Shown here in pieces: positions 754-49,072 of a DNA stretch of 64,000 nt (its first letter is position 1; each line of letters begins with the position of its first letter). The stretch comes from Longimicrobiales bacterium (GTDB lineage Bacteria; Gemmatimonadota; Gemmatimonadetes; Longimicrobiales; Gaopeijiaceae): contig CBDEGT010000002.1 of assembly GCA_965237965.1 (NCBI GenBank), positions 77,496 to 141,495 of the forward strand. Direction: 5' to 3'. Both the position numbers and the translations under genes were made by a program. The notes below the pieces were generated by a model. The model saw only the letters and a list, made by a program, of their open reading frames with translations. It searched no databases and was not told where the DNA came from.

Positions 754-799
754 CAAGGAGACTCTCCGGAGCCACCACCTTCAACTGTCAGCGGGACAC

Positions 800-940
800 C
801 ATCCGAGCTGGCACTCGATGCGGTAGCGCCCCTCAAGGGCCGCGTTCAGGCGGGAGACAGGATCGGGGCCATTCACCCGCTCAAGATGGGCATGGGACCC
901 ATGAACCGCGAGCAAATACCTCTCGTGGGCAGACGGGTGC
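800..940 (-). repeat. kinase-5' module, copy A (kinase promoter/SD/N-terminal codons; orphan)
   Basis: Contains ctcgatgcggtagcg..cgcgttcaggcgg, whose reverse complement encodes [13 protein letters not shown]. About 90% identical to six other copies. Confidence 0.6.
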
Positions 941-13432: not shown

Positions 13433-13761
13433 GACCCCATCCTCTCAAGAGGTGGAGTCTCCGGCAATCCCGGGGCGATTCAGTCCAAGCGCCTAAGATG
13501 CGCGCTAGACCACTATATCGCGAATAAATCCTTCTAGGGATGGACTAGGAGGACGATCACCACGCCTCTAGGCAGCTCCTTCCTTGGACGGCGCAAGTCT
13601 ACGCCATGCTCCGAGGTCTACCGATCCGTTCCCCACAGTAGGTGGCTCGTGCTCACCGGACTCCTGCAGTTCAATGAAGTTGCGGAGGGCCGACTCACGA
13701 ATACGCCACGAGCGAGCACACGCGAGAAGAGCCCGTGCCAGGTCAAGGGGCCTGTCCGAGA

Positions 13762-16864: not shown

Positions 16865-16914
16865 ATCACCCCACCTCCTACCGGACCTGTGCCAGTGACC
16901 GGCCCCCCCCCGAT

Positions 16915-16985
16915 CTTACGCTCGATGCGGTAGCGGCCTACAAGGGCTGCGTTCAGGCGGGTGACGGGATCGGTCACCAGTTGCC
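16915..16985 (-). repeat. kinase-5' module, copy B (truncated; directly upstream of TAXI gene start)
   Basis: Reverse strand encodes [23 protein letters not shown], followed by a G9 run and the TAXI SD/ATG. Confidence 0.6.
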
Positions 16986-17014
16986 CACCGCGTCGGCTGG
17001 GTCGACAGCCTCCC

Positions 17015-17490: not shown

Positions 17491-17739
17491 CGGAATCCCT
17501 CCTGTGGTCGGCAGGGTCACGCAGCGCGTCGGCTGTGGCTGAGCGAGTATAGCGCGCGGATCTCGTCGCCGCATGCTGGAGTCTGGGGCCTGCGCCGGGC
17601 GGGCGGGATGGCAAGGCCAGGCGGCGGATGCCATCAGGCCCCCGCCGGCTCGTGGGAGGACCTCAGGTGTTGGGCGACGGAGACCTCGCCGGGACCCGAG
17701 GTGGTCGCCGGGCGTGGGGGGTTGGCGGCTGGTTGGGAG

Positions 17740-17890
17740 GGCGCTCGATGCGGTAGCGGCCTTCTAGGGCCGCGTTCAGGCGGGTGACGGGATCGGGCTT
17801 GTTCACCTGCCCAAGATGCCGGTCAGGGCGGTAAACCGCGAGAAAGCTCCGATACACGAGGGCGAGCGAAGGATCACGGCCAGCAAGGTG
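17740..17890 (-). repeat. kinase-5' module, copy C (includes ~80 bp of conserved upstream promoter-like sequence)
   Basis: Encodes ..[20 protein letters not shown]. Upstream part ..caagatgccggtcagggcggtaaaccgcgagaaagc..ggatcacggccagca is shared with copies E and F. Confidence 0.6.
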
Positions 17891-18050
17891 GGCAGTGAGC
17901 CGGACGGCTTGGCTTTACGGAGCTGGAAACAGAGTGTACTTGGGGTCCTAGCCCGCCAAAAAAGAACAGCGCCCCCCAGCACCGAGCGCCCTACTCCTCT
18001 CGGATGATCAACTGAGTCGTCGGCTTGGTCACTTCCCCACCCTCCGTTCC

Positions 18051-18716: not shown

Positions 18717-18841
18717 GGGTCCTCCTCAGGAGTGGGAAGGTTCGGGGTGTGATGCACCCAACGATCCGTTGCGCGGAGGATGCGCACCTACTGAATCGCC
18801 CCGGGATTGCCGGAGACTCCACCTCTTGAGAGGATGGGGTC

Positions 18842-21310
<2,469 letters not shown>

Positions 21311-23560: not shown

Positions 23561-23562
23561 GA

Positions 23563-24141: not shown

Positions 24142-24163
24142 GCCTTCGCGGACAAGGCCAATG

Positions 24164-27686: not shown

Positions 27687-27948
27687 CGTCCGCCTCCCCG
27701 ATCGTCCCGCTCAGCCCTTGAACTCCCGCCCCGTAAATCTAATGTCCCAGGGACCGACTTATTCAGAGTATTCCTAGCTCTAAAGACCGTCTACGCGGGG
27801 GATCAGACTCCCGGCACTCTATACATATGCTTGACTGGCCCGCGGGTCCCTCGCGGCTCGCGAAAGGGACCCACCAGCGGGACGGGTCCTCCTCCAGGGC
27901 GGGGCTGTTCAGCCAGCCCGAAGCCTCAATGACTAGGACGCCGCACTG

Positions 27949-28242
27949 TCAGTGCGGCGCGAACGCGCTCAGGACGGGGTCTTGAGCTGGATTGTTGGGA
28001 TAGTTGTGCAGCGGCAGGATGTGCGGGTGCTGCAGGTTCGCGGTCGTCTTGATCTCGGCCAGGAACCGCTCGGCCCCGACTACAGCGGCTAGCTCAGGTT
28101 TCAGAACCTTGAGCGCGACCTTGCGCTCGTGCCGGAGGTCGTCGGCCAGGTAGACCGTCGCCATCCCGCCCTCGCCGAGCTGGCGCTCGATGCGGTAGCG
28201 GCCTTCGAGAGCCGCGTTCAGGCGGTCAGGCACATCGCTCAT
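27949..28242 (-). pseudogene. Ser/Thr protein kinase N-terminal fragment (97 codons; kinase-5' module copy D plus ~60 further kinase codons)
   Basis: [74 protein letters not shown] then divergence and stop. Contains the kinase Gly-loop and VAIK Lys. Confidence 0.7.
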
Positions 28243-28479
28243 GCTGACTCCCAGGGAGAACGGAGTCCTAGGCCATGCAGCGATCTATTATCTATAGGGA
28301 GGCGGCTACAGTTTGGGATGAGAAGGGGGGGATGGCCAGCCTCCCGGCCACGGAGTCGCAAGACTTCAAGCGCTCCAGAACGCAAACGGGCTCAATGGCC
28401 CCAATCGACCGTGGGAGACTGGCCAAATGGACACTACCCCCAAGCAGGTGACCGGTGTCGACGTAAGCGATCGCTTTAG

Positions 28480-31245: not shown

Positions 31246-31356
31246 TCTGACCCCAATCGCGCATCGGTGACAGCCTATGTAGCCGGAAGGTCTGCGGTGG
31301 AACATGGGCGCAAAATGGGATCACTTGTGGCGGTCGGTCACACCGTCATCGCCATC

Positions 31357-31440
31357 AGGTCGGCACCAGCCGCTTCAGCTCCTCGAAGAAGTTCTGGACG
31401 AGGATGACGGTGACGCGGTCTTCGGCCGATCCACATCAGC
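31357..31440 (-). repeat. kinase-3' module, copy 1 (last ~24 codons ..VILVQNFFEELKRLVPT* plus stop), immediately downstream of floA
   Basis: 45 of 47 bp identical to copy 2 at 40296..40385, including synonymous positions. Confidence 0.55.
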
Positions 31441-32455: not shown

Positions 32456-32582
32456 GGGCAGCCCTCGATGGAATCGTGGGTGATTGGGGAGCGTACACTC
32501 CGGCGGAGATCGGTCGTAGGGGACAGGCCCGGCCTCCACTATAACGCATCGCCGCGGCCACTGGAGCAGTACCGGCCAGGTA

Positions 32583-32712
32583 GACGGTCGCCATCCCACC
32601 CTCACCGAGCTGGCGCTCGATGCGGTAGCGACCTTCGAGGGCCGCGTTCAGGCGGGTGACGGGATCGGGCTGGTTCACCCGATCAAGATGCCGGTCAGGG
32701 CGGTAAACCTAT
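32583..32712 (-). repeat. kinase-5' module, copy E, directly upstream of floA (fragment ORF stop overlaps floA ATG: ATGACTGA)
   Basis: Encodes [36 protein letters not shown].. then out-of-family sequence. Confidence 0.6.
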
Positions 32713-32787: not shown

Positions 32788-33408
32788 TCACCGGCGGGCT
32801 CGTATCGGAATCAGAACCCGCGTGCCCGCCCATTCCACGACCAACTCCACGGCGTCCACGGCCAGACTCCTGAAGGAAAAGGTCAGCAACTCGACCGGCT
32901 CCTCCGTGGGCTCGACGGGCACGATCCCCGAGCCGATGTCCTGCTCCCGCACCAGGTCATCGATAGGGATGCCCCATCGCTCTACTTCCGCATTGACGAT
33001 GACCTGCCATTCCTCCCTCGACGGGATTACATAGAGCGAGTAGGAGCCGGACTCCAGCGGGACCCCGGCGATCTCCACCGGGACCGGAACGCTGATAGAG
33101 GTGGCTTCGTTGGCTCCGAGTCGCCACGGCTCTCCGTAGGGCACCACCCGGCCCATGATTGGTCGGCCAACCGTCCGGGGGCGGCTGTAGCATACCTTGA
33201 TCTCCTCACCGTCCAGTCGGACGGTGGCCGAATCGAAAGGGCTGATTCGGATGTCAAGATCAGAGGGATCGTCTCGAATCCAGCAGGCAATATCCACGGG
33301 GCCTACCACCTGCTGGCCTTCGGCTAGGCCGTGACCAGCAAGCTGCAGAACACAACCGAGGACAACGCCTCTGAGACGTGGCACACCCACAGTAAATCGC
33401 ATCTTCAA
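32788..33408 (-). CDS. DUF2911-like secreted protein
   Basis: Signal peptide. ..PWRLGANEATSISV..GSYSLYVIPSREEWQVIVNAEVERWG.. matches the DUF2911 pattern. Confidence 0.5.
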   Translation of the reverse strand: MKMRFTVGVPRLRGVVLGCVLQLAGHGLAEGQQVVGPVDIACWIRDDPSDLDIRISPFDSATVRLDGEEIKVCYSRPRTVGRPIMGRVVPYGEPWRLGANEATSISVPVPVEIAGVPLESGSYSLYVIPSREEWQVIVNAEVERWGIPIDDLVREQDIGSGIVPVEPTEEPVELLTFSFRSLAVDAVELVVEWAGTRVLIPIRARR

Positions 33409-33502
33409 ATCACTCTCAAGGGGCCGGGTGGCGCGTTTTGCGAGTCAAGCCGAGGTTCACGTCCGTGGCATCTGCAGCTCATCGAAGCACGCTGATCCAT
33501 AC

Positions 33503-33685
33503 CGTCGCCATCCCGCCCTCACCGAGCTGGCGCTCGATGCGGTAGCGACCTTCAAGGGCCGCGTTCAGGCGGGTGATGGGATCTGGGCGGTTCACCCGAT
33601 CAAGATGCAGGGCAGGACAGCGAACCGCGAGAAAGCCCCTATATACAGGGGGGTGAGCGGAGGATCACGGCCAGCAGGCAGGCAG
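33503..33685 (-). repeat. kinase-5' module, copy F (longest; includes conserved upstream region), upstream of DUF2911 gene
   Basis: ..ccatcccgccctcaccgagctggcgctcgatgcggtagcgacc..ggatcacggccagcaggc. Confidence 0.6.
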
Positions 33686-33989
33686 TCTCTCTCGCCCCGG
33701 ATCACCTACCCCGTGGTTCCGCGCGCGCGTTACGGTTTGGGTGTGTGGTTGGGTTGTTCGCAGCCTCATGGTTCTGGCCTCGGTCGTAATCACCGTCATA
33801 TTCGTCGTCGCATGGCTCTGGGGTTGGTACGCGTCACTCGCTTCGTAACCAACTCCGGATTGTGGGGCGTGCGCGGCCCCGAGACGCACGGTCATATATT
33901 GAATCTTCTGCCCATGTCGGGCTCGGCCCCGACCAGCACGGGATCTAGTCCCAGTGACGCACCGTCTTCAACGTGGAGCACACTGAGCC

Positions 33990-35925
33990 ATGTCGAGCTT
34001 CTTGGCGCATGAGATCCGCGTACTCGTCGCCGCCCTCGGCATCGTCCTCTGCACGTCCGACGCTGTCGCTGCGCAGACCAACGGACGGGACGGCAGCGCG
34101 CCCTCCGCGCCCGCCGTCCGGATCGGTGACGAGCCGGTCATCGACGGCTCCCTCTCGGACCCGGCCTGGGAGGGGCTTCCCGTACTGACCGACTTCGTCC
34201 AGCGCATCCCGCGGGACGGGGAACCGGCCACACTGAGAACTGAGGTGCGGATCGGGCACGACGAAGCGGCGCTCTACGTGGGCGTGCGCGCGCACGACGA
34301 CCAGCCGTCTCTGATCGTCCCGGGCGAGGCGATCCGAGATTACGACCTCGCCCAGTCCGACACGGTCATGCTGATCTTCGACACGTACAAGGATGGAGTG
34401 AACGGCTTCGCGTTCGGCACGAACCCGGCCGGAATCGAGTACGATGGCCAGGTGGTGGACCAGGGCTCAGGAACCGGCGGGCTCCGCGGCTCGCTCGGAA
34501 CCGGGGGCGGTGGTGGCGCTGGGCGCCAGCAGGGCGGCTCGGGCGGTGGCTTCAACCTGAATTGGGACGGCAACTGGGAGGTGGCGACCGGCCGCGACGC
34601 GCAGGGCTGGAGCGCCGAATTCCGGATCCCCTTTTCGACGCTGCGCTACCGCGCCGGTGGACGGCAGGACTGGGGCCTCAACGTGCTGCGACGAGTACGC
34701 CGGGTGAATGAGGAATCGTCTTGGTCGGCGATCCCGCGCGAGTTCGACTTCAACCGCGTGAGCGAGGCGGGCACCCTGACCGGCCTCGAGCCGCCGGCAG
34801 TCCGGTCGGTCCAGCTCACGCCGTACGTACTCGGCTCCTCCGCGCGGAACTATGCGCTCGACGACCCCGGGTTCGACGAGAACGGCGAGGTGGGCGGCGA
34901 CGCCAAGGTGCAGATCACGCAGGGCCTCACCCTCGACCTCACTTACAACACCGATTTCGCGCAGGTTGAGGTGGACGACGTCCAGACCAACCTGACACGC
35001 TTCAGCATCCAGTTCCCGGAGAAGCGCCCGTTCTTCCTCGAGAACTCCGGGATGTTCTCCTTGGGGGGCCGCGGGGCAGACCTCTTCTTCAGCCGCCGCA
35101 TCGGGATCGCGCGCAACCTGAACCGGGTGCCCATACAGGGGGGTGGCCGGCTCTCGGGCAAGACGGCCGGGCTCAACGTCGGCCTGCTCCACATCCGCAC
35201 CCAGGAGCTGGACAGCGTCCAGAGCGGGCAAGCCTACTCTGTGGTTCGGCTCGCGCGCGAGCTGGGCAATCGTACCAGCATCGGAGGCGCGTTCCTGCAG
35301 CGGGACGGGCTGGAGGAGACTGACGACTACAACCGCACCTACGCTGTGGACGGGCAGCTGGGGATCGGCACCGCGTGGAACCTCAACGCCCTCGTGGCCC
35401 GCACCGAGACGCCTGGAATGGAAGGCCGGGACTACATGTTCAATGCAGGCGGCAGCTACAGCAGCCGCAACCTGAATCTCAACGGCAGCTTCAGCGAAGT
35501 CGGTGAGGACTTCAATCCCGAGGTTGGCTTCCTTCAGCGCTCCGGCTATCGATCGTTTGGCGGACGCGCGGTGATCTTCATCCGTCCGACGGATCTGTTC
35601 GGGCTACGTGAGCTCAGGCCGCACGTCAGGTTCAGCACCACGCGCGATCTCGAGACCGGTTTCGAGGAAACCTCGCAGGTCCACCTCGACCACCACTTCG
35701 AGTGGGACTCGGGGATGTTCTTCAGCCCCGCCTTCAACTGGAATCGCGAGGGGCTCGAGGAAGCTTTCTCAATCTCCGACAGCGTGATCGTGGCGCCAGG
35801 CACCTACGACGGCTGGGAGATGAGTTGGCATTTCTACACGAACCCATCGGCACCAGTCTCATTCGAGGCCCGCTTCACCAACGGCGCCTTCCTCTCGGGA
35901 AACCGGCGCGGATACTCTCGTCCAG
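33990..35925 (+). pseudogene. DUF5916/CBM9-like exported protein (carbohydrate-binding family 9 N-domain + beta-barrel), C-terminus truncated by IS110-like remnant
   Basis: Signal peptide. ..DGSLSDPAWEGLPVLTDFVQRIPRDGEPAT..NWDGNWEVATGRDAQGWSAEFRIPFSTLRY.. ORF runs out of family into the IS110-like sequence at ~35925. Confidence 0.55.
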
Positions 35926-36180
35926 GCCGCCTGGCACTACAGGATGCGACCCGCCGTGGGCAAGCAGCTCGAGAAGCGACAGCGCGGCCAACCGCCCGCC
36001 GTCATCGCCCATGCCTGGAAGTCCCAGCACCGGCTCCACAAGCTCTACCACCGCATCGCGGTCCGGAAATCGGCCCAGGTCGCTGTCGTCGCCGTCGCCC
36101 GCGAACTCGTCGGCTTCATGTGGGCCGTCATGCGTGAGCTCGAAATCGAACAGGCGACCGCGCTCGACGCGGCCGCGTAA
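35922..36180 (+). mobile_element. IS110-family 3'-terminal remnant (encodes ..AHAWKSQHRLHKLYHRIAVRKSAQVAVVAVARELVGFMWAVMRELEIEQATALDAAA*)
   Basis: C-terminal IS110 transposase signature. About 90% nucleotide identity to 11030..11200. Confidence 0.55.
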
Positions 36181-36265
36181 CCCAGACCAAGAGGACCCGA
36201 GGCACGATAGGAGGACGCTCGACCTAACTATTGGGGATTATATACCCTAGTGCCCAAGCCTTTCC

Positions 36266-36409
36266 TTACTTAGAGGGCTTGGGCGGGCTGTAGTCGATGA
36301 CGGACCGCAGGAGTTTGTCCGGTGTGGTCGGAATACTCACGTCAGCTTCTAGCTCGACTTTCGTCGGCTGGTAGGTTGAGGGCTTTTCGGGTTTCTTGGA
36401 CTTCTTCAT
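36266..36409 (-). CDS. small Lys/Pro-rich hypothetical protein (passenger)
   Basis: MKKSKKPEKPSTYQPTKVELEADVSIPTTPDKLLRSVIDYSPPKPSK. No homology recognised. Confidence 0.3.
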   Translation of the reverse strand: MKKSKKPEKPSTYQPTKVELEADVSIPTTPDKLLRSVIDYSPPKPSK

Positions 36410-36455
36410 GAGCGTCTCTCTCCAGCTTAGAACGGCAGTGATGATTCGGCGACCC

Positions 36456-37201
36456 CTACCGCGACCAAACGTTGTTGTCGTACTGTCGTCTCGAGTCATC
36501 GTTCACCCATTGCACGTAGGGACTCGAGTTCCAGTAACCGGTGTCGAGTACCCGAGCTATTGGCATCACCATTATTGACTTAGCACCCATATTTGCTAGT
36601 GCTCCAGCGGCACTGATGGCGGTCCCACCCGTGACCCATGTGTCCTCAACCAGGAGGACTCGCTCCCCGTCCGCACTCTCGCCGTCGCTGACGAAGCACT
36701 GGGGGCAGTAGGAGCCGCGGGTAGCAACCATGTCATCGTGGGGTTGGTACTCCAGCAACGGGACGAGCTTTTCCCGTAACGGTACCATCATCGCGAGTGC
36801 CTGCCGAAGCGGTTGGTCCATGAAGCTCCTTCCGCGCTTTGATGGTACGGGCGTCACTACTGTCACTTCCCCGCCTAGAAGTGCTTCGATATCTTCCCTG
36901 TTGGAGGCCAAGAACATCCACAGGACAGACACGAGTTGAGCTCGGTACTCCGGATGTCCGGCCTTGTAGTTCGCCATCTTGTTGTACCAAGCGCCAGGCC
37001 GCAGCGCGATGCTCACCGGAACAACTGATTGTAGCGTGTCCGCGGTGCCCCAGTACCACACAATCGTGTACAGGCTGGACAGTAGTTGTATCTATCGCCC
37101 TTCGGTCCCAAGCAACCTGGGCAAACCCAAGATTCAGCAACTGGCGCTACTTGTCTAAGATCTTGGACCACCGCTTGGAAGAATTCACAGACACTAGCCA
37201 C
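36456..37201 (-). pseudogene. ComF/ShosT-like phosphoribosyltransferase-domain protein (N-terminal CxxC..CxxC zinc ribbon + type I PRTase), frameshifted between the two parts
   Basis: Frame 1 (37013..37201): ..WVCPGCLGPKGDRYNYCPACTRLCG. Frame 2 (36456..37061): ..VTVVTPVPSKRGRSF..ERVLLVEDTWVTGGTAISAAGAL (PRPP-binding loop). Confidence 0.6.
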
Positions 37202-37209
37202 CCAAGCTG

Positions 37210-38161
37210 CTACGCGGTCAGGCTCAGTTCTGGTTCATTCTGAGCCTCGAGTCTCTCAAGGATTTCATTTGTTGACCCGACCTCAATCGCCACCGCCCCG
37301 TATGCTCCGTCCTCGACGTACTCCCTCGCCCACTCATACGACTCCACAAGGGATTTGAGTAGAAAGACCGCCCGTCCATGCTGCATCGCGACTCGGGCCT
37401 GCATTCGGGCTCCAGAGGTTTTACTCGCCTCGACCACGACGGTTGTGAGTGAAAGCCCAGACATCACGACATTACGCATGGGGAACGTCCAACGACGCGG
37501 GGTTTGGTGGGGAAAAAACTGACTCAATAGCGCCCCACCAGCATCCACGATTCGCGTGGCGAGTTTCCTGTTTACGGACGGATAGCAATGATCCAGGCCG
37601 GTTCCCATGACGGCGACCGTCCGACCGCCGGCCTCAAGTGTACTAGTGTGAACAGCCGTGTCGATACCGGCGGCCAACCCCGAGTTGATCGTAAACCCCG
37701 CTTCGGCTAGTTCAGACGCGAGAAGAGTTGCCCTCTTCAGCCCCGCGTCGGTCGCGTTCCTCGTGCCGACGATCGCAATAGACCTCGAGTCCATCTGCTC
37801 CCTCCAACTACCCTGCAGAAAGACTATTGGGGGGCGATCGAAGATTGAGTGAAGGTTATGGGTAGCATGGGTCTAGCACTGACCGAACGTCGATTCCTCG
37901 CTCGAGCCAGTCGTCGACGGCTATACGAGCTTCGTCGAGCTCATCAGAGGAAACGGTTCCTGCCAACCCACAATTAACCTCCGGGGTGCTGAACAGCACG
38001 TCATCCAGCGTCAGTTGGATGAGTTCCACAGCTGAGCCCACAAGGTCTATCAGCGTCGCGAGCTGGTCAACCCTGACTGGCTTTATTGCGGCTCTAATTA
38101 GAGCCGCAATAGCAGTTAGCTCGTCGCGGCGGTCGCCAGGGCTCAGATCCTTGAGGTCCAA
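37210..38161 (-). pseudogene. DprA/Smf-family (DNA-processing protein A-like, Rossmann/SLOG) protein, split by a frameshift in the linker
   Basis: N-part ..AVDDWLERGIDVRSVLDPCYP*. C-part frame reads ..NLHSIFDRPPIVFLQGSWREQMDSRSIAIVGTRNATDAGL..NSGLAAGIDTAVH.. The two frames overlap at 37856..37875. Confidence 0.65.
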
Positions 38162-38215
38162 GGCCGTTTTTCCGTTGAGGGGGTTGAGCGGGTGGCGTAA
38201 AACTCGTCTGGTACA

Positions 38216-39187
38216 TCACGCAACCAAGTCCTGATAGCGGAGCCGCTTACCGTCCAGGCCCCGGACCATTGCGGTCATCTGGTCTAGTGTGTCCTGATTA
38301 CGCTGGTTGTGGCGACCAGCGAACTCACCCACATAGCGGTCCAAGTGGGCGGCGGACATCTGGTGGTAGGTGCCGTGGTAGCCACGCTTGAGCATCGACC
38401 AGAAGGATTCGATACCGTTGGTGTGGGCCATCCCGTTCACATACTGACCGACACCATGTTGGACAGTTTCGTGAAAAGTCAAGCCCGTATAGGCCCTGTA
38501 TTCGTCGGTGTAGACGGTCGCTTCTGGCCTAGAGTGTTTCCGGACAAAGCCTTGCAGGGTTGTTGCGTCGGTGGATTCGACCACCTGAGCAACGACGGTA
38601 TTGGTCTCCCGGTCCTTGGCTCCCACGACCGCCGTCTTGCCCACGGGGCCACGGCCAGCCCGTAGCTTCTTGCTTGAGTGCTTGTTCCGCTCCTTGCCTC
38701 CTACGTAGGTCTCGTCCACTTCCACCGGCCCGACGAACGCGCCGGTGGACTCCCACGCTTCACGGAGACGGTGCGCTAGGTACCACGCGGTCTTCTGCGT
38801 GACCTTCAGGTCGCGGTGGAGCTTCATGCTCGACACGCCCTTCAGGTTCGTGGCCAACAGGTAGATGGCGATCACCCACTTCTGGAACCCTATGTTTGAG
38901 CCCTGTAGCGCGGTTCCCGTGCGGGCGCTGAACCGCCTCCGGCAATCGCGGCACCGGTAGGGCATGGTCTTGTGTTTCGCGCCTACCTGGACGTTCAGGG
39001 AGCCGCAAGGTGAGGGGCAAGCGATCCCATCCGGCCAACGCGCTTTGACGAACCATACTTCGGCTGACTCATCGTCAGGAAACAGATCGAGCAAATCGAT
39101 AAGCGCGAGGCCTTCGCGGTAGTGCTTTCCAGGTGCTCTCCGTGCCATTGAATCCTCTCTCGTTGGGCTGATTAATAATAGTGCCAA
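38216..39187 (-). CDS. IS1595 family transposase (N-terminal zinc ribbon + DDE_Tnp_IS1595)
   Basis: ..WPDGIACPSPCGSLNVQ..YRCRDCRRRFSARTGT..VEVDETYVGG..YTDEYRAYTGL..HTNGIESFWSMLKRG.. Confidence 0.85.
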   Translation of the reverse strand: MALLLISPTREDSMARRAPGKHYREGLALIDLLDLFPDDESAEVWFVKARWPDGIACPSPCGSLNVQVGAKHKTMPYRCRDCRRRFSARTGTALQGSNIGFQKWVIAIYLLATNLKGVSSMKLHRDLKVTQKTAWYLAHRLREAWESTGAFVGPVEVDETYVGGKERNKHSSKKLRAGRGPVGKTAVVGAKDRETNTVVAQVVESTDATTLQGFVRKHSRPEATVYTDEYRAYTGLTFHETVQHGVGQYVNGMAHTNGIESFWSMLKRGYHGTYHQMSAAHLDRYVGEFAGRHNQRNQDTLDQMTAMVRGLDGKRLRYQDLVA

Positions 39188-39409
39188 TCGGAGATAAAGT
39201 CAAGGGCCAATTGAGGTTAAATGGCGTCGCGGTCAAGGATTTACTGGCGGATTTACTGGCGGCGCTTGGGCACTAGGGTATATAATCCCCTAACTATTGG
39301 GTACGGCCCTCACGGGCCTCAATCCCAATCCATTAGTATTGAGCCAGCTCCAGACGAATCTGACTTCGTGCCGCGCTGGGTAGATACCTACCTAATCGGC
39401 GAATATTAG

Positions 39410-40221: not shown

Positions 40222-40295
40222 CTAGTAGGATCATCGTCGAAGCTGTCCTCGGGTCCTCTTCGCTATTTGAAACCCTTGCGCCAGCCCTTTCATAT

Positions 40296-40385
40296 TAGTT
40301 CGGCACCAGCCGCTTCAGCTCCTCGAAGAAGTTCTGGACGAGGACGAGCGGCTGCTCTGGTTCCGAACCGCGGGCGTTCCACCCG
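40296..40385 (-). repeat. kinase-3' module, copy 2 (..EPEQPLVLVQNFFEELKRLVPN*), downstream of NHL lipoprotein gene
   Basis: 45 of 47 bp identical to copy 1. Confidence 0.55.
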
Positions 40386-40566: not shown

Positions 40567-41775
40567 CTATCGGCTAATCGAGTAGCCCAGGCTCCGACCC
40601 ACGAGCTTACTCGGATCGGCATTGGGCTTGGGCACGAACTTGTCCACGTGCCCGGTATCGAAGTTGACCACGTATACGTTGCCATCTTGGTCCACATCCA
40701 TCTGGTGCGGTCGTGCCATGGCTCCGGGTGCTCGGGTCAACTCGGACGTTCGCCACGTCTCCAGAGCTCCCGTTGGTCCGTACCCACCCCCCGTAAATCC
40801 GTACGTGCCCCAGCCGTACTGATACTCCCCGCTCGTGTTGAACTTCATGATCCGATTCAGCACCGCAGAGGTCACCCAGACCGCGTCGTTCACGTCGATG
40901 CTGACGTCGACAGGGAAGAAGATCTCGGGCCATTCCTCGACGTATTCACCGTTGTCCGTGAAGACCTGGACGCGGCTGTTACCACGGTCAGCAACGTAGA
41001 CGCGACCGCTGCGGTCAACGTCGACGCCGTGGACGAGGTCGAACTGCCCGGGGCCGCTCCCGAGCTCGCCCCACTCCATCATGTACTCGCCGTCCGCATT
41101 GTACTTGACGATGCGCGAGTTCGTGTACCCGTCGGCGAGGAGAAAGCTACCGTCCGGGAGAAAGGCCAGTGACGCGTTCTGGCCAAAGTCGAACGGGCCC
41201 GGGTTCTTGTTCGCCCGCTGCTCTTCCCGGGTCTGGACAGGGTTCGGGTCCCTGAGCTGCATCACCAACTCGCTTCCGTCGTTCGTGAACTTCAGGACCT
41301 GCTCATGGACTCCGTTGCCCCCCCGCTCGACGACCCAGACGTGACGCTCCGGATCGTAGGGACTGATATAGATCGCATGCGGTCGGTTGAACAGCGAATC
41401 CCACTGCGACCACCGCTCGATGATGTTCCCGTCCCCATCGGCAACCACTACGTAGTTCGTGCCGCCAGGCCTTTCCGCCGACCCTCCGCTCGCGCCATAA
41501 ACAGGCGGAAACTCCCTGTCTCCCCACAACCCGATGATGATCCGGTCGGGGGTGTCCGCCGCAATAGCCGCCCCCTGTCCCCACGTCCAGGTCTCATCAT
41601 GATCCGGCGCCGCCTTCCACCAGCCCGGCACGGCGTCGTACTCCCCCGTCCTTTCGTCCCCACCCTTCTGGGCCACCCGCTGCGCCGTAGTACTCTCGCT
41701 CTCCATAGCGCAACTGGACAACACAACCACGCCACCGGTGACGAAAAGGGCCAGGACAACGGCTAACATTCGCAT
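40567..41775 (-). CDS. NHL-repeat (six-bladed beta-propeller) lipoprotein
   Basis: Lipoprotein signal MRMLAVVLALFVTGGVVVLSSC. Repeated ..DGNIYVADxGNxRVQ.. blades (NHL pattern). Confidence 0.7.
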   Translation of the reverse strand: MRMLAVVLALFVTGGVVVLSSCAMESESTTAQRVAQKGGDERTGEYDAVPGWWKAAPDHDETWTWGQGAAIAADTPDRIIIGLWGDREFPPVYGASGGSAERPGGTNYVVVADGDGNIIERWSQWDSLFNRPHAIYISPYDPERHVWVVERGGNGVHEQVLKFTNDGSELVMQLRDPNPVQTREEQRANKNPGPFDFGQNASLAFLPDGSFLLADGYTNSRIVKYNADGEYMMEWGELGSGPGQFDLVHGVDVDRSGRVYVADRGNSRVQVFTDNGEYVEEWPEIFFPVDVSIDVNDAVWVTSAVLNRIMKFNTSGEYQYGWGTYGFTGGGYGPTGALETWRTSELTRAPGAMARPHQMDVDQDGNVYVVNFDTGHVDKFVPKPNADPSKLVGRSLGYSISR

Positions 41776-42076
41776 GATGCCTTTCCTTCCTTAGCAGGGA
41801 GCCTCAATGGACAGCCCACATGTGAGCACGATCCGGTGTCACCTGGCGATGAGCCGGCCAGCCCTCCCCTTCCCGTGAGACGTTCGGTGTTCCCCGGGGG
41901 GGTGGGAACCAGGTTAGCAGAGGCGTTTCCTAGGTGTCAACAAGAGTTCCCCCAAAAAGTGCCAAGCGAGCTAAAGAGGGGGCGATTCCCCGCTAGTGTA
42001 TAACGGCTTCGCTGGTTCATCACCCTAAGCAGGTTCACTAGCTATGTGAAGAACCCCCCTAGATTCCGACACTTCA

Positions 42077-42140
42077 GCGAAACCCCGGAAGCGGCGCCTT
42101 CAGCTCCTCGAAGAAGTTCAGGACGACGATCATCCCCTTG
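42077..42140 (-). repeat. kinase-3' module, copy 3 (diverged: ..MIVVLNFFEELKAPLPGFR*), downstream of metalloprotease gene
   Basis: Core cttcagctcctcgaagaagttc is shared with copies 1 and 2. Confidence 0.5.
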
Positions 42141-42185: not shown

Positions 42186-43865
42186 CTACGGTTCCTTACG
42201 GACACGCACACGATATCCCGTGCTGAGGTCCTCAAGCACCTCGACGGTCAGGCCGATCGCCGGATCCTGGAAGGTAGATACCCGTTCCTCTCCGACATTG
42301 AACGCGACTCGATTGGCCGGCTCACAATGGTTGACAATGTCAGGTTGAGCCTGCTGAATCCAAATCGGCACGTCACCGCTCTCTACGTTGCCGTCCACGG
42401 AATAGACCAACACGCCTTCTTGGCAGATCCGCGCGTCAAAGCCGATGCGCTTCCGCGCCTCTATCACGTAAGCTGTCGTTTCGCTCGTTGGGATCACAAT
42501 CGCCTGAAACTCGTCGGGTTGCTCGAACGTGAACACGGTCCTCTCGAACTCACCGAAGGTGATGCAATCGACGTCCTCGTCCAGCACCCATCCTATCTTC
42601 CACTTATGCCAGACCAAGAAGTGGGCAAGGGGGGTTGCAAATGGGAGGCTCATCGGGTCCCAGGCGCCGACTGGCGACATGTTCTCCCAAAAGTCTTCGG
42701 GGTTCGCGCCACCAAGGTCGGGGAGACCGAAGAGGTGCCCGATTTCGTGCACCAGGATGTTGTAGCTGTCAACATCGGTGGCGCCATGCCGGACTTCCAC
42801 TCCGTCGACGGACACGCCGGCGCCAGACTGCTCAGCGTATGAGCTGGTAAATGAGTTGGTAGCGTTCGCGAGTGAGTTCTTTGGGACGACGATGTGGACC
42901 AGGTCGAACTGCGTGAAGTCCACTGAGGCATCTGCCGCATGGATGGCGTCAATTACCCATTCCCAATGGGTACGCACTTCATAGTACTCCATGGGGTGAG
43001 GCAGACGAATCCAGTTCGGAGTTGATTCCGCGGTATTCACCATGCGGCCGTTCGAAGCTTCCGAAAACCACTCCTCGGCCAGCGTCCAAATCTCATCGAA
43101 GACCAGTTCCGTCGAATCAGTTCCCGGAAAGTCAGGGAAGTCCACGAAGAGAACGAGTGATCGCACCACGCCAACGGGACGGAAATACTTCTCCGGCCGA
43201 TGCACAAAGGCCTCCTGTTTGATCCCCTCGATCTTGCAGGTCTCGATGGGAACCGGGTCCGAGACGGCTATGAGGCGGGAACCGACCACACCATCCGTCG
43301 TGGCGAAAACGTCGGCGGCCCCGTAGGCAATCCCTGTTACAACACCCGTTGGGCTGACTTCGACGATCTGCCCATCCGAGGATTCCCATGTGATCGACTT
43401 GTCCTCAACCCGTGTTCCCCCTAGGTCCAACGCCTCAGCAGTTAGCTGGGCGGTTTGCCCTGGCGGGATCATGACCCCCGCGTTGGATCCGATGGATACG
43501 GAGGCGACCATCTGCTCGACCGTGATGGACGCGGACCCGCTCACCGGACCTGCGGTGGCAGTAATCGTGGTGGTCCCGTTTCCGATGGTCTTGACGAGGC
43601 CGCTTGAGGCATCCACGGTCGCAACGCCGACGTTCGATGACGACCAGGCGAATGACTGACCCGAGATCGGGGTCCCTGAAGCGTCTTTCGCGACCGCGCT
43701 GAATTGTTGATCGACGCCGACGGATGCCAAGGTCTGCTCAGACGGTGAAACTTCGATAGTGGCGACTACTGGCTGCGTTGGGCCGGACGGTCCTGCGGGT
43801 TCCTTATCGCCCCCACAGGCACCGACCAGGAGGACAGACAGAGAGACGGACAACACTGTCGCCAT
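42186..43865 (-). CDS. M6-like zinc metalloprotease lipoprotein with Big_2 (bacterial Ig-like) domains. Its ATG and the 26 in-frame codons upstream are supplied by kinase-5' module copy G
   Basis: MATVLSVSLSVLLVGACGG lipobox, Ig-like ..TATIEVSPSEQTLASVG..TITATAG.. repeats, and zincin motif ILVHEIGHLFGLPDLGG. Confidence 0.65.
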   Translation of the reverse strand: MATVLSVSLSVLLVGACGGDKEPAGPSGPTQPVVATIEVSPSEQTLASVGVDQQFSAVAKDASGTPISGQSFAWSSSNVGVATVDASSGLVKTIGNGTTTITATAGPVSGSASITVEQMVASVSIGSNAGVMIPPGQTAQLTAEALDLGGTRVEDKSITWESSDGQIVEVSPTGVVTGIAYGAADVFATTDGVVGSRLIAVSDPVPIETCKIEGIKQEAFVHRPEKYFRPVGVVRSLVLFVDFPDFPGTDSTELVFDEIWTLAEEWFSEASNGRMVNTAESTPNWIRLPHPMEYYEVRTHWEWVIDAIHAADASVDFTQFDLVHIVVPKNSLANATNSFTSSYAEQSGAGVSVDGVEVRHGATDVDSYNILVHEIGHLFGLPDLGGANPEDFWENMSPVGAWDPMSLPFATPLAHFLVWHKWKIGWVLDEDVDCITFGEFERTVFTFEQPDEFQAIVIPTSETTAYVIEARKRIGFDARICQEGVLVYSVDGNVESGDVPIWIQQAQPDIVNHCEPANRVAFNVGEERVSTFQDPAIGLTVEVLEDLSTGYRVRVRKEP

Positions 43866-43950
43866 CCCGCCCTCACCGAGCTGGCGCTCGATGCGGTAGC
43901 GGCCTGACAGGGCTGCGTTCAGGCGGGTGACGGAGTCAGGCATTAGTTGC
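43856..43950 (-). repeat. kinase-5' module, copy G (fused in frame to the metalloprotease gene)
   Basis: [30 protein letters not shown].. The kinase GGMATV supplies the lipoprotein start. Confidence 0.6.
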
Positions 43951-43994: not shown

Positions 43995-44815
43995 TCAGTA
44001 GCGCAGCATCCGACGCCGTGGGACGAGGTTTGGCCGACCAAGAAACGCGTATTGGATGTTCTTGACGTAGTTGCTGAAGATACGTCGAACCTGGTAGCCC
44101 GCGACGCCGCGGAGATCCTGCACCCAATCGGTGACGGACTGGGGGCTTCCTCTGAGGAGTACGGATGACGCGAGGAAGTCAGCCTGCTGCGAGCTAGTCT
44201 GGTTGGACAGATAGTACTCCAGGCTTGAACGCCTGGCGTAGTTTCTGAGCTGGAATCGAGGGATCGTGCTTTCCCTGAACGTCGAGATGGCATCATTGAT
44301 GATCCTCATCGATTCATCGGGATCCACGGTGCTTACGTAGATCCCCCCTCCGCTAGCTGCTCGGTCTACTATTTGTGCCCCCGCTGCATAGGACAGTCCC
44401 CTCGCCCTGATTTCGTTGGAGACGGACCCGGCAAGGATTCTCACCGCGACCTGGAACGCAGGGTAGTGTTCATGTGTGCTCGTCGGCCCCCCGAAGTAGC
44501 CGAGGATGTAATTTGTCGGGAGATCGCGAGCCTCTACGGGTTGTAATTTGTCGGGAGATCGCGAGCCTCTACTCTGAGCCCCGGGTCCTCTTTCGCCCAG
44601 GGTTGTGGAAGCTGCCAAGAGTAGGAGCCGACCGGGAGCGCCCTAAGCGTACTCCTGATCGCGGATTCGACGGCGGATCGATCGATCGCGCCGACTACAG
44701 ACAGCAGCATCCTGGAGCGAATAAACTGCTCGCCGTGATAGGACCTACCACACGAATGCGTGGCGACACTTCGGGGTGCGGCCACCGACTGGAGATCCGC
44801 ACCCTGAACGAACAC
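43995..44815 (-). pseudogene. M16-family (insulinase-like) peptidase, C-terminal non-catalytic domain only; 5'-truncated and frameshifted by a ~35-bp tandem duplication
   Basis: ..LLSVVGAIDRSAVESAIRSTLRALPVG.. and ..FQVAVRILAGSVSNEIRARGLSYAAGAQI.. Direct repeat GTAATTTGTCGGGAGATCGCGAGCCTCTAC appears twice around 44510..44575. Confidence 0.6.
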
Positions 44816-45067: not shown

Positions 45068-45586
45068 TTAAGTGTTTGAGCGATACGAGAGCAGTGACGT
45101 TGGGTGATGCGGGTCATGCATCGGCCAGGTGCCCGTTTCGCGAGTGACTCGCGGAGGGAAGTAAGGAAGCGAACATGTCGCGGGCGGAGTCGGGTCGAGG
45201 CGCTGGTGAGGCTGCTCTTCGCCGATTCTATGGAAGCAACATCTTCCGTCCTTGAAGGCCCTAGTCCGCGTGCCGGGGTCGTACCGACTACGTCGGACGG
45301 TTCGAGTGTGCTGAAAGAGCCTCGGCGCAGCCCGAACGGGGGCCAGCATCAAGAGTGCCCGCTCTATGGCGACCAGGTGGACGATGACCTCGACGGCCTC
45401 GGCTTCCGCGTAGTAGGTGTTGGCCCAGCGGGCGATCTGGTTGAGGTTGTTGCCGATGCGCGTGACCGGCCGGCGCACCAGATCCGACAGCGTCAACCCT
45501 GCGGAGCGCGCCTTCGCGTGCCACTCGGCACGCTCCGCCTCGCTGGCGCGAATCTTCAACCACACGTCGCGTCCAGCGCCCCTCAT
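45068..45586 (-). CDS. MobC-family mobilization (relaxosome accessory) protein
   Basis: ..WLKIRASEAERAEWHAKARSAGLTLSDLVRRPV.RIGNNLNQIARWAN.. The RIGNNLNQIAR motif is the MobC hallmark. Confidence 0.6.
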   Translation of the reverse strand: MRGAGRDVWLKIRASEAERAEWHAKARSAGLTLSDLVRRPVTRIGNNLNQIARWANTYYAEAEAVEVIVHLVAIERALLMLAPVRAAPRLFQHTRTVRRSRYDPGTRTRAFKDGRCCFHRIGEEQPHQRLDPTPPATCSLPYFPPRVTRETGTWPMHDPHHPTSLLSYRSNT

Positions 45587-45711: not shown

Positions 45712-46896
45712 TCAGCGGATCGGTTCGGCCTCCGGGTCTCGACGCTTGCCAGCGAGATACGCGGCCCAAGCCTGCATGACCTCGCGCCTCCGGTCCAGCA
45801 GGTCCGAACGGGCGTAGGCGGCCTCGGCCTGACTGCGGACCTTGTGTGCGAGCGCCGCCTCCGCCACCTCGCGCGCCACGCCCGTCTCCGAGCACCAGTC
45901 GCGGAACGAGGACCTCATCCCGTGGGGCGTTCCTGCGATGCCGAGACGCCGGAGCAACTTGCTGAACATCGAGGCGTGGATCCTTCCTCCCTTCGCGCCC
46001 CGGAACACGATCCCGCCGCCGCCGTGGAGCTTCCGGGCTTCCTCGAGGATCTCCAAGGCCCGCCCCGACAGGGGAACCCGGTGCTCGCGCTTCGCCTTCA
46101 TGCGGTCGGCGGGAATGGTCCAGACATCGAGCTCGACCTCGTCGCACGCCGCGCCCCGGACCTCGTTCGAGCGTGTCGCGGTCAGGACCATGAACTCGAA
46201 CGCCAGCCGGACACCGGCATGGGACTCCGAGTCGCGGACCTTGGCCAGAGCCGCCGCCACCTCGCCGTGCGGGAGCGCCTTGTGATGCCGGATGGCGTTG
46301 CCGTTACGCGGCAGCGCGGCGGCGATGGCGTCCCCCGCCGGGTTGTCCGGCCGGTAGCCCTTCGCGACGGCCCACTTCATCACCGCGCCGATCCGCTGGT
46401 GCACGGCCCTCGCGGTCGCGGGCTTGCTCGACCAGATGGGCTTGAGGATGGCGAGCACGTCGGCCGTCGCGACCTCGCTCACGCGCTTCCGGCCGATGCG
46501 CGGATGGGCGTAGTCCCGCAGCGTCTGCCGCCACTGCCCGGCCATGCGGGATGGGTTCTTCCAGGTCGGCGAGTGGATCGCCATCACCTTCTCGACGGCC
46601 GCCTCGAAGGTGGGAACCCCCGCGTCTCTCGGGTCGTGGCCCCAATGGACCGCCCGCCTGTACTCCAGCGCCTTCTCCCTCGCCTCCCTGAGCGTCACGA
46701 CCGGGTACGAGCCCAGTCCGAGATTGGTGGGCTTCCCCGCCACTCGAATGCGCTGGCCCCAAGACTTGGAGACGCGCCCGGACTTCATCCGGTGGACGCG
46801 GAGGTACAGGCCGAGCCCGCCGAGCCCGCCGTCGCCGTAGCGTCCCGGCGTCTTCACCCGCGCCACGAAGGCGGCCGTAAGGGGTCGTTTACGCAT
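45712..46896 (-). CDS. tyrosine-type site-specific integrase (P4-like, N-terminal DUF4102 arm-binding domain)
   Basis: ..RYGDGGLGGLGLYLRV.. (DUF4102) and C-terminal ..HGMRSSFRDWCSETG..LAHKVRSQAEAAYARSDL.. (R..H..R..Y catalytic region). Confidence 0.85.
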   Translation of the reverse strand: MRKRPLTAAFVARVKTPGRYGDGGLGGLGLYLRVHRMKSGRVSKSWGQRIRVAGKPTNLGLGSYPVVTLREAREKALEYRRAVHWGHDPRDAGVPTFEAAVEKVMAIHSPTWKNPSRMAGQWRQTLRDYAHPRIGRKRVSEVATADVLAILKPIWSSKPATARAVHQRIGAVMKWAVAKGYRPDNPAGDAIAAALPRNGNAIRHHKALPHGEVAAALAKVRDSESHAGVRLAFEFMVLTATRSNEVRGAACDEVELDVWTIPADRMKAKREHRVPLSGRALEILEEARKLHGGGGIVFRGAKGGRIHASMFSKLLRRLGIAGTPHGMRSSFRDWCSETGVAREVAEAALAHKVRSQAEAAYARSDLLDRRREVMQAWAAYLAGKRRDPEAEPIR

Positions 46897-47917: not shown

Positions 47918-49072
47918 ATGGCACGGCGACCGGCAACCCTTACTGCCGCCTTCGTACGGACGGTGAGCAAGCCCGGCGTTTACGGCGACGGACGCGGCTC
48001 GCGCGGCCTGAGCTTGCGCGTTCACCGGATGAAGAGCGGCCGGCTATCGCGCACATGGAGGCAACGGTTGCGCGTCGCGGGGCGGCTGACGACGACCGGG
48101 CTCGGCCGGTATCCCGAAGTCTCGTTGGCGGAAGCCCGGCACAAGGCCATTGAGAACGCGCGGGCCATCGGCCAGGGTGTGGACCCGCGCGGCGGCGGCG
48201 TCCCGACGTTTCGCGAAGCCGCCGAAGAGACGATCCGGCTACACGCCGAATCGTGGAAAGCCGGCTCGCCGCTCCCCGGGGAATGGCACTCGACGTTCAG
48301 GCTGTACGCCACGCCGATCCGGGACAAGCCGGTGGACCGGATCACGTCGGGCGACGTGCTGGCGTGTCTCCGGCCGGTATGGAACGTGAAGCCAGCCGCC
48401 GCGCGGAAAGCCCGGAACCGGCTCCGCGTGGCATTTCGCTGGTGCGTCGGACAAGGCTACATCTCGACGAATCCCGTGGACCGCGCAGTGGCCGCGCTCC
48501 CGAAGGTCAACGGCAACGGCACGACGCACCATCGCGCGCTCCCGCACGGTGAGGTTCCAGACGCGCTCCGGCGCATTCGGTCGGCCGACGCCCCGGAATC
48601 CGCGCGGCTCGCCGTCGAGCTGATCGTCTTGACGGCGGCGCGCTCCGGCGAAGCGCGCGCCGCGACGTGGGACGAAATCGACACGGCGGTGAAGGTTTGG
48701 ACGATCCCGCCGGCGAGAATGAAAGCCGGCCGGGAGCATCGCGTGCCGCTGTCCAGCGGCGCGCTCGACGTGCTGCTGCGCGCCAGCGAGCTTGCCGGCG
48801 ATTCGCCGTTCGTCTTCCCGACGCGGGCCGGCCGCGCGCTGTCCTCGAAATCCACTTACTGGGTGCTCCAGCTGGCCGGTGTCACCGGGACGACGCTGCA
48901 CGGTTTCCGAACGTCGATTCGTGTCTGGATGGCCGAAACCGGCGTGGACCGCGAGACGGCGGAAGCCGTGTTGGCTCACGTCGTGCGCGGCACCGAGGGC
49001 GCGTACATGAGATCGGACCTGCTGGCGCGCCGGTGCGAAGTCATGCAGGCATGGAGCGCCTATGTCGCATAG
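47918..49072 (+). CDS. tyrosine-type site-specific integrase, paralogue of int1 (~50% aa identity), divergently oriented
   Basis: ..VYGDGRGSRGLSLRV.. DUF4102, and ..LHGFRTSIRVWMAETG..LAHVVRGTEGAYMRSDL.. Confidence 0.85.
   Translation: MARRPATLTAAFVRTVSKPGVYGDGRGSRGLSLRVHRMKSGRLSRTWRQRLRVAGRLTTTGLGRYPEVSLAEARHKAIENARAIGQGVDPRGGGVPTFREAAEETIRLHAESWKAGSPLPGEWHSTFRLYATPIRDKPVDRITSGDVLACLRPVWNVKPAAARKARNRLRVAFRWCVGQGYISTNPVDRAVAALPKVNGNGTTHHRALPHGEVPDALRRIRSADAPESARLAVELIVLTAARSGEARAATWDEIDTAVKVWTIPPARMKAGREHRVPLSSGALDVLLRASELAGDSPFVFPTRAGRALSSKSTYWVLQLAGVTGTTLHGFRTSIRVWMAETGVDRETAEAVLAHVVRGTEGAYMRSDLLARRCEVMQAWSAYVA

Follow-up and report, generated by a model that had tools for sequence, protein, structure and literature searches.

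How a secreted protease comes to begin with the first codons of a protein kinase is the question raised by an open reading frame (ORF) of a Longimicrobiales bacterium (phylum Gemmatimonadota; GenBank assembly GCA_965237965.1, contig CBDEGT010000002.1, positions 77,496 to 141,495). All coordinates below refer to this stretch of 64,000 nucleotides (nt), the window, with its strands given as (+) and (-). The ORF (42186..43943, (-)) encodes 585 amino acids (aa), a kinase-derived N-terminus followed by a lipoprotein protease. Illegitimate recombination probably fused a kinase paralogue to an existing M6-like lipoprotein protease gene, which would now use the kinase start.

The fusion ORF is assembled from clearly separable parts, all on (-). 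The kinase-derived 5' stub (43855..43943) runs from the first ATG (ATG1, 43943-43941), the first candidate start, to the GT of GTG at codon 30 and encodes strand beta1 and the Gly-rich loop GEGGMATV. The Met of GGMATV is residue 27, and its codon (ATG27, 43863..43865) is the second candidate start. Read directly from the sequence, these 29-30 kinase codons run in frame into LSVSLSVLLVGAC-GGDKEP.... The recombination junction is placed at 43854..43855, with kinase homology up to ATGGCGACAGT and protease-family homology from G TTG TCC (V-L-S...). Here begin the hydrophobic core of the signal peptide and the lipobox VLSVSLSVLLVGA-C (43815..43856), a PS51257-type match that aligns with the signal peptides of three homologues (P0003, P0006 and P0011); the lipobox Cys43 is encoded by 43817-43815. 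Further downstream are two bacterial Ig-like domains (aa 61-218, 43290..43763; Pfam Big_2, 7.6e-18, with weak matches to Big_1 and Invasin_D3) and an M6-like (immune-inhibitor-A-like) metalloprotease domain (aa 264-514, 42402..43154; TIGR03296), in which HEIGHLFGLPD (aa 399-409, 42717-42749) fits the zinc-binding motif HExxHxxGxxD. The stop codon is at 42186..42188. The TIGR03296 match (E=2.3e-26) covers model positions 1-285 of 286 with 93.4 bits, below the curated cut-off of 110.8, and the domain is best described as M6-like rather than as a confirmed member of the M6 family; a PDB comparison gave only a weak match, to the motif region of snapalysin (E=0.6). The fusion ORF is not a kinase, as the catalytic domain with the VAIK Lys, HRD and DFG is not there and the kinase part is restricted to residues 1-30: Pfam returned no Pkinase match on the 585-aa ORF, and the tblastn match to kinases stops at 43857. 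The first-pass annotation, which read the ORF as a kinase leader passing into a lipoprotein signal and then a metalloprotease, described the sequence exactly, and the ORF is a true chimera.

The kinase origin of the N-terminus follows from its repetition. A 44-nt core of the leader is present four times in the window at <=1 mismatch, against zero expected (100 shuffles). The looser 126-nt leader family has seven copies in the window, all on (-), starting at 782, 16889, 17712, 28154, 32584, 33501 and 43855, and pairwise comparison of these copies gives matches of 72-159 nt with 83-95% identity. The copy at 28154 extends to a 97-aa fragment, in which Pfam Pkinase positions 1-68 are represented before an IS5-family insertion sequence (IS) interrupts it; therefore, Met27 of the fusion is the Met of the Gly-rich loop. 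In addition, 20 full-length kinases used as tblastn queries match 43857-43925. By sequence homology, the N-terminus is assigned to a Hanks-type Ser/Thr kinase.

What the kinase codons replaced can be seen in the homologues with a native 5' end, P0003 (locus L076), P0006 (L069) and P0011 (L071), which are 39-65% identical to the window protein. These share the N-terminus MSxPxKxCxP...R-(V/H)(L/A)xL..LSLxGC and, 5' of the gene, a common element of ~65 nt, CTGCTTGCGCC...CTCTCGGATGTTGAC..GGTCTGATCCCGGAGTG. In the alignment, native '...R-VLTLLLLSLAGC' stands opposite '...T-VLSVSLSVLLVGAC' of the window protein, or, in longer context, '...PPR-VLTLLLLSLAGCGG' opposite '...MAT-VLSVSLSVLLVGACGG'. Kinase DNA occupies everything 5' of 'VL' in the window, and it is at 'VL', exactly at the junction, that protease-family homology begins, an outcome of the orthologue alignment that bears out the first-pass annotation. 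With the native upstream element, the window gene has lost its original start codon and ~18 codons, one of which encoded the n-region Arg. From the junction to the lipobox there is no ATG, and in frame the next Met does not come until ~aa 154; the only non-ATG starts at the junction (GTG30 and TTG31) have no Shine-Dalgarno sequence. Since no protease-origin ATG is left before the lipobox, a kinase-derived start is required; the kinase module supplies it, as had been proposed, the only ATGs 5' of the lipobox being kinase-derived. The further proposal of a 'gene birth' does not hold, as what was replaced is the 5' module of a conserved protease gene that already existed, and the 29-30 kinase codons stand in for that native module.

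The ~65-nt element itself (L076:5590-5663, L069:5930-6000 and L071:5930-6000, with related sequence 5' of kinases in L023 and L038) is conserved far beyond the coding sequence among protease homologues of only ~40% identity and suggests a regulon-type promoter or operator. The 'ATGTCC' start of P0006 was considered as kinase-derived and rejected, as its N-terminus and upstream element are common to P0003, P0006 and P0011 and are native. A more distant homologue, P0005, shows an independent 5' replacement (L002:8001-8260 compared with L069:5850-6100). Its 5' end consists of a two-piece kinase remnant (the leader plus kinase residues ~60-105) and a signal peptide unlike that of its close relative P0006, and high-identity DNA homology between the two begins just past the lipobox.

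Translation of the fusion would start at ATG1, at ATG27 or at both. The GAGG that the first-pass annotation regarded as a plausible Shine-Dalgarno sequence is present 5 nt before ATG27 (43871..43874, (-)), an ideal spacing, as read from the sequence; it is coded by the G-E-G codons and is a by-product of G-E-G-G coding, so it is present in every kinase paralogue. The preference for ATG27 finds less support, as the n-region that starts there is without Lys or Arg (K/R), and in a second lineage with the same fusion (lineage 2, described below) a CATCTT promoter-like motif lies 6 nt before ATG1, inside the conserved kinase upstream element TTCGCG..N..GCATCTTGAGCGC-ATG. This motif resembles a leaderless-mRNA promoter and would favour ATG1 in that lineage. 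A precursor starting at ATG1 has a 29-aa n-region with four Arg and three Asp or Glu. Lipoprotein signals of the PROSITE PS51257 type are recognized by six uncharged residues followed by [LIVMFWSTAG]2-[LIVMFYSTAGCQ]-[AGS]-C, together with conditions on K/R and on the position of the Cys. The stretch SVLLVGA-C matches the lipobox pattern, and its Cys is residue 43 counted from ATG1 and residue 17 counted from ATG27. Either start would lead to the same mature protein: all kinase residues lie 5' of the lipobox Cys, so signal peptidase II cleavage would leave the mature enzyme native.

The junction is conserved well beyond the window. The same junction is present in at least seven independent assemblies belonging to two lineages, and a protein identical to that of the window is found as P0241 on a 1.18-Mb contig. 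Lineage 2 (L001, L074, L075, P0244, P0248 and P0251) has the identical junction with 96% nt identity in the protease body. The junction-bearing assemblies come from several samples and include contigs of 1.2-3.5 Mb with up to 19x coverage; the in-frame fusion is intact in at least five independent assemblies across both lineages. Comparison of the window with L001 over 549 codons, without a gap or stop, yields 0.085 synonymous (dS) and 0.027 nonsynonymous (dN) substitutions per site and a dN/dS of 0.32, or 0.22 for the protease half. The protease body is under purifying selection. In-frame status alone, with a chance of 1 in 3, carries little weight.

Outside the fusion, the two lineages differ: the DNA 5' of the leader and 3' of the stop is unrelated, homology ending exactly at the stop codon, and the leader is preceded by the 3' end of an M16B peptidase gene in the window and by the class-A kinase upstream element in lineage 2. 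The leader itself is identical at 61 of 72 positions, compared to 96% identity in the body (binomial P=1.3e-4 against the body rate), and its amino-acid differences (S to Q, Q to E and L to I) are all toward other kinase-typical residues. The simplest reading is that gene conversion or crossing-over with kinase paralogues would have taken place inside the stub and stopped at the junction, where the shared sequence ends. Homology upstream of MATV in another frame, which the first-pass annotation had named as evidence against its proposal, seemed to be offered by P0002 from L001, where a GTG start in the +1 frame gives a textbook signal peptide (MRAAWPR...). Its cause is a 1-nt homopolymer error. 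At L001:~160 (GTCTGTCCCTCCTGG) an extra C in a homopolymer of this 2x-coverage contig made the gene caller choose the +1-frame GTG, and P0244, P0251 and L074, better assemblies of that lineage, are in frame and without the extra C; the case is a caution for low-coverage long-read contigs. A sister strain of the window, L003 (3.5-Mb contig, 99.6-99.8% identical), has the same gene order, M16-M16-[stub]protease-[tail]-NHL-[tail]...DUF5916-[stub]DUF2911-[stub]FloA.

The protease stub is one of many. The window contains seven kinase 5' leaders, none on an intact kinase, and three orphan kinase 3' stubs (..VQNFFEELKRLVP and stop), full-length kinases ending in ...LILVQNFFEELRQVVP and stop. All of these are on (-). 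The leader at 33501..33686 carries the class-A upstream motif, ends in ...GGMATVWISVLR and stop, and precedes a DUF2911 gene (32788-33408); that at 32584..32709 breaks after MATVYLA and is followed by a flotillin-like FloA gene (31547-32605). Similarly, the stub at 17712..17896 breaks after RYRIER before a DUF4440/SnoaL lipoprotein gene (17015-17614), and the stub at 16889..17014 precedes two ORFs, one lipoprotein-like at its N-terminus (15809-16864) and the other a long multi-pass membrane ORF (13762-15789), which by eye look like a TAXI/TRAP transporter pair. The stub at 782..907, with its break after RIECQLG, abuts an opposite-strand IS256-family transposase (31-753) and adjoins an AbiEii-like toxin fragment (966-1562, (-)). 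The kinase 5' end at 28154..28279 continues into the IS5-cut 97-aa Pkinase fragment (27949-28242). The orphan 3' stubs are found ~55 nt past the protease stop in another frame (42074..42135, MIVVLNFFEELKAPLPGFR and stop), 3' of an NHL-repeat lipoprotein gene at 40567-41775 (40294..40347, LVLVQNFFEELKRLVPN and stop) and 3' of FloA (31354..31407, VILVQNFFEELKRLVPT and stop). Apart from the 97-aa piece, tblastn with the 20 full-length kinases found no internal kinase fragment longer than ~30 aa in the 64 kb.

In a scan of the genome collection, 65 loci contain the leader, and almost all of them belong to Gemmatimonadota. For a tally of 99 leader copies in 70 loci, a stub was defined as kinase homology ending within 110 codons. 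By this definition, 31 copies are stubs (mostly ending within 46 codons), 4 are intermediate truncations, 40 are full-length or merely frameshifted, and 24 are cut off by the end of the locus. Short stubs make up ~40% of the assessable copies (31/75), an excess with P=3e-24 in a binomial comparison with uniform breakpoints, and their breakpoints are spread over ~13-105 codons. In ~23/25 cases, a stub and the first non-IS ORF behind it have the same orientation. This cargo includes lipoproteins, secreted hydrolases, a CDGSH protein, a bactofilin, an ABM monooxygenase, DinB, a TIR-like protein and a dehalogenase, and most cargo genes retain their own start. The protein behind the stub in L062 is TIR-like by eye, and defence-type genes may be among the kinase-stub-associated genes. 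Orphan kinase tails amount to ~11/40.

Intact kinases typically form head-to-tail arrays with the stop/start overlap TGATG; otherwise, a small membrane-protein gene follows. This small gene begins M-K-x-Q-I-P-W-L-R-V-F-V-E-G-V-V-I-V, overlaps the kinase tail stop/start-wise, and is found at L006:2250, at two sites in L009, in L019, L023, L028, L042 and L064, and at L001:1880-1960. Short 5' stubs of this gene recur between a kinase tail and the next kinase promoter, so terminal stubs are not peculiar to kinases. Directly 5' of many kinase leaders in several species lies a conserved non-coding motif, CTCGCG(N)..CTGACC..GCCGCATCTTGAGCGC-ATG, with CATCTT 6 nt before the start; it accompanies the window leaders at 32584-32709, 33501-33686, 17712-17896 and 782-915 and leaders in L006, L022, L029, L034, L040, L042, L056, L062 and L074, and may be a leaderless-transcript promoter or a shared regulator site. 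The class-A motif CTCGCG..N..GCATCTTGAGCGC-ATG is not significantly enriched at stubs (13/31, compared to 8/39 for full-length kinases; Fisher P=0.07); it is missing from the window copy at 43855 and present on the lineage-2 copy. Literature searches on kinase paralogy in Gemmatimonadota or Longimicrobiales returned nothing relevant.

The fusion by illegitimate recombination can be pictured as follows. A deletion or replacement would have joined kinase codon 30 to ~codon 19 of the protease gene, with loss of the native conserved upstream element, the start codon and the charged n-region and retention of the hydrophobic core and lipobox. The kinase stub would then provide the start (ATG1 and/or ATG27) and a substitute n-region, and signal peptidase II would cut before Cys43, removing the kinase residues and releasing the same mature enzyme. 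So crude a fusion would be tolerated because the kinase residues are cleaved off and the mature enzyme is unaltered. The stub, homologous to dozens of kinase paralogues, would go on recombining, by which upstream DNA would be swapped between lineages. In our reading, the gene would have worked with its chimeric start over ~4% nt divergence and would now be situated in a decaying, IS-rich region.

Two routes to the stubs are considered. In model A, stepwise deletion, upstream kinases decay and their promoter-proximal head is kept as driver of the downstream gene; we give this an about even chance, if anything slightly better. The broad breakpoints, the two-piece remnant in L002, the many frameshifted or truncated kinases and the IS-rich surroundings fit this model. 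In model B, which is clearly less probable, cargo is inserted, or swapped for the kinase body, between head and tail, with later homologous shuffling; this would fit the four head-cargo-tail sandwiches and a protease body whose flanking heads and tails differ between the two lineages. Under either model, the protease junction is an illegitimate join that is in frame by chance. Several candidate explanations were rejected. Tandem integrative elements with the kinase 5' end as attachment site (att) do not fit, as there is no integrase in the inter-stub segments and breakpoints vary between copies; the lone integrase (45712-46896) lies outside these segments and is absent from L003. The protease is not a former extracellular domain of a kinase either: it ends at a stop codon of its own, the reading frame of the tail stub is a different one, and the homologues are stand-alone proteins with signal peptides. 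The 329-aa beta-propeller genes upstream of the proteases in L074 and L002 were rejected as orthologues (24% identity, E=0.02), and the L074 beta-propeller gene is not the NHL gene of the window.

Several observations weigh against a functional fusion produced in this way. When K/R is sought within the first seven residues and the Cys at positions 15-35, neither start combines the two: ATG1 offers R7 with the Cys at 43, ATG27 a Cys at 17 without K/R. The native homologues P0006 and P0011 and the internal-Met form of P0005 have both within these limits. The atypical n-region lowers confidence in efficient export, although export may still occur. No sigma-70-like promoter was found upstream in the window, where a promoter/terminator consensus scan did not rise above shuffled expectation. 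M16B orthologues in relatives (80-84% identity) have unrelated downstream genes and do not reveal the pre-fusion synteny; deletion and insertion or replacement both fit. The M16B upstream neighbour is a pseudogene in the window, L003 having an intact M16 pair. In L003, a 70-bp deletion (L003:11641, compared to window 42233-42303) frameshifts the conserved last ~45 residues (P0001); in this strain, the protease gene is dispensable and being lost.

These observations could be extended to the view that the fusion is a by-product of genome decay, in which the protease is no longer expressed or exported and its frame is residual. The n-region that is atypical from either start, the lack of a promoter-like site in the consensus scan and the frameshifting deletion in L003 all fit, as does a window rich in gene fragments (half an AcrB, HlyD and OEP pieces, the M16B remnant) and in IS5, IS3, IS110, IS256 and IS1595 elements. 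Such a dead scar is rather unlikely, however, in view of a dN/dS of 0.22-0.32 over 549 intact codons with the junction in both lineages, the at least five independent assemblies of both lineages in which the fusion is intact and in frame, and a lineage-2 stub that retains the conserved kinase promoter-like motif directly 5' of ATG1. Another explanation reaches beyond this gene and takes the kinase family of Longimicrobiales as a recombinase-independent platform for gene capture and expression, a homology-driven analogue of the integron, in which kinase heads, tails and tandem junctions serve as recombination scaffolds and the protease is one swapped cassette with a trimmed start. Cargo would sit between a kinase head (promoter plus start) and a tail and would be moved among loci and genomes by homologous recombination. 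The leader-cargo-tail sandwiches in the window (protease and FloA), in L014 (CDGSH protein) and in L009 (bactofilin) have this layout, and so do consecutive single-gene units that each have a stub (33501-DUF2911-32584-FloA and 17712-DUF4440-16889-transporter). Furthermore, the heads and tails that flank the protease body differ from one lineage to the other, the homology ending at the stop codon, breakpoints cluster near the Gly-loop codons, and kinases normally stand in head-to-tail TGATG-overlap arrays. However, no dedicated recombinase is linked to the stubs, the integrase at 45712-46896 being of P4 type and absent from L003, and no attC-like or single-strand structure was found in them, folding being no better than for shuffled sequence (z-scores -1.05 to +0.29). 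The breakpoints extend over ~13-105 codons instead of marking one site, the two-piece remnant in L002 is typical of stepwise deletion, and a co-orientation of 23/25 is only modestly above the ~70% expected for bacterial neighbours, a baseline that is our own estimate. We hold this explanation to be doubtful.

Two narrower alternatives concern the start region and the assembly. The 26 upstream codons had been suggested to act as a leader peptide, and a regulatory leader or upstream ORF with the protease made solely from ATG27 would agree with the GAGG 5 nt before ATG27 and with stubs elsewhere whose ORFs can end just 5' of the cargo ATG, as in L006 with a stop 4 nt before the ATG. The absence of a stop between ATG1 and the protease means that ribosomes initiating at ATG1 make a longer precursor, so a discrete leader peptide is impossible while dual initiation is possible; we regard the regulatory version as very improbable. 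An assembly chimera might be suspected at a kinase leader that is a multi-copy repeat, the more so with a regional error in the low-coverage (2x) L001, but the join is at a non-homologous point, which repeat collapse cannot yield, and the junction recurs in at least seven assemblies from several samples, on contigs of 1.2-3.5 Mb with up to 19x coverage. The probability of such an artefact is practically negligible. The fusion of a kinase start to an existing protease gene by illegitimate recombination is thus the reading that we retain as probable.

The surroundings of the fusion are rich in IS elements and gene remnants. The M16B remnant upstream (43995..44741, region to 44815, (-)) is 5'-truncated at 44741 by a MobC/integrase element and contains a 35-bp tandem duplication (44504-44572). 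A MobC/NikA-like gene (45068-45586) adjoins the truncation point, followed by the P4-type tyrosine integrase (45712-46896, (-); Arm-DNA-bind_3/Phage_int_M/Phage_integrase), which is absent from L003. Inverted stretches of 72% nt identity (45752-45888/48935-49068 and 46775-46883/47937-48042) suggest that 47918-49072 (+) is a second, divergently oriented paralogue of this integrase. On the other side of the protease, an element of ~3.05 kb (36236-39288) is bounded by perfect inverted repeats of 27 nt (36233-36259 and 39264-39290) and holds an IS1595/ISXO2-like transposase (38216-39187) and a phosphoribosyltransferase-like gene (36456-37061). The otherwise collinear L003 does not have this element, which is therefore probably a recent transposon insertion with a passenger gene. 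Two IS3-family copies (11005-13484, (-), and 18790-21104, (+)) are 100% identical over 903 nt and lie inverted around a 5.3-kb segment with the transporter-like genes, the DUF4440 gene, a 221-aa ORF (peroxiredoxin-like by eye) and two kinase stubs, a layout that resembles a composite transposon. Both IS3 copies contain an ALIL frameshift pseudoknot (13038-13154 and 19120-19236), which were the only Rfam matches in the window; nothing structured was found at the leader, and no tRNA or tmRNA in the window. The edge of one IS3 copy (11038-11226) and the 3' end of the DUF5916 gene (35917-36105) form a 189-nt direct repeat of 91% identity. IS5-family copies that are 100% identical (2177-3192 to 26762-27777, and 25555-26762 to 28479-29686, the latter inverted), together with a 76%-identical relative, point to recent bursts of transposition. 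A truncated RND efflux operon (21932-24796, (-)), in which AcrB is reduced to model positions 2-529 of 1021 and HlyD and OEP to fragments, is further evidence of regional gene decay.

Taken together, the locus illustrates how a secreted enzyme can survive the loss of its start codon and entire 5' control region when an unrelated gene fragment gives it a new start; since its signal peptide is degenerate and would be cleaved off, the mature enzyme stays untouched. As a natural example of a replaced 5' module the locus is clean, the junction being mapped and selection in evidence, and it is a warning for annotation, as gene callers give the protease a false 'kinase-like' N-terminus. The fusion is real but a fairly ordinary gene-end swap, one among many kinase stubs, and the abundance of these stubs in the genomes is a more interesting lead than the fusion itself. 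If the stubs drive expression, a large paralogous family would be a reservoir of portable promoter and start modules, which would bear on gene rewiring and acquisition in poorly studied soil bacteria.

Several known systems share parts of this arrangement. Polymorphic toxin loci (rhs/cdiA orphan tips) have C-terminal toxin tips that vary behind a conserved core, all within one protein family. As in these orphan modules, short fragments of multi-copy genes flank variable DNA here and offer homology for later recombination, but whole unrelated genes follow the kinase stub. The extended signal peptide region (ESPR), a dedicated motif, is conserved on the Sec signal peptides that large autotransporters carry. 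Initiation at ATG1 would likewise give the fusion a long N-terminal extension (~29 aa) before a normal hydrophobic core, but one that is an accidental piece of kinase attached to a lipoprotein. Integron cassette arrays also consist of single, unrelated, co-oriented genes split by a recurring sequence, whereas the kinase stubs have no IntI, attI or attC-like fold and their recurring unit is a gene fragment with variable ends. Putative mobile promoters have been defined as sequences of >=50 nt and >=80% identity, within and between genomes, upstream of coding sequences that are not homologous and whose upstream coding sequences are non-homologous as well (Matus-Garcia et al. 2012, PMC3488235; PMC3575422). 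The kinase leader family, with matches of 72-159 nt at 83-95% identity that are followed by the protease, DUF2911, FloA, DUF4440 and transporter genes, agrees with this definition at the level of sequence, and is without an evident transposition mechanism. It differs from mobile promoters in being partly coding (the first 15-75 codons), and in the present case it donates a start codon and part of a signal peptide. The closest counterpart is the classical chimeric gene formed by illegitimate recombination or deletion (the concept as in PMC1463047, Drosophila), likewise an in-frame, non-homologous join under selection. The fusion is such a gene and as such not surprising to a specialist. Compared to classical cases, predicted cleavage would remove the peptide that the donor contributes and leave the protein without a new function, and the donor comes from a very large paralogous family whose 5' end recurs as a stub at many loci.

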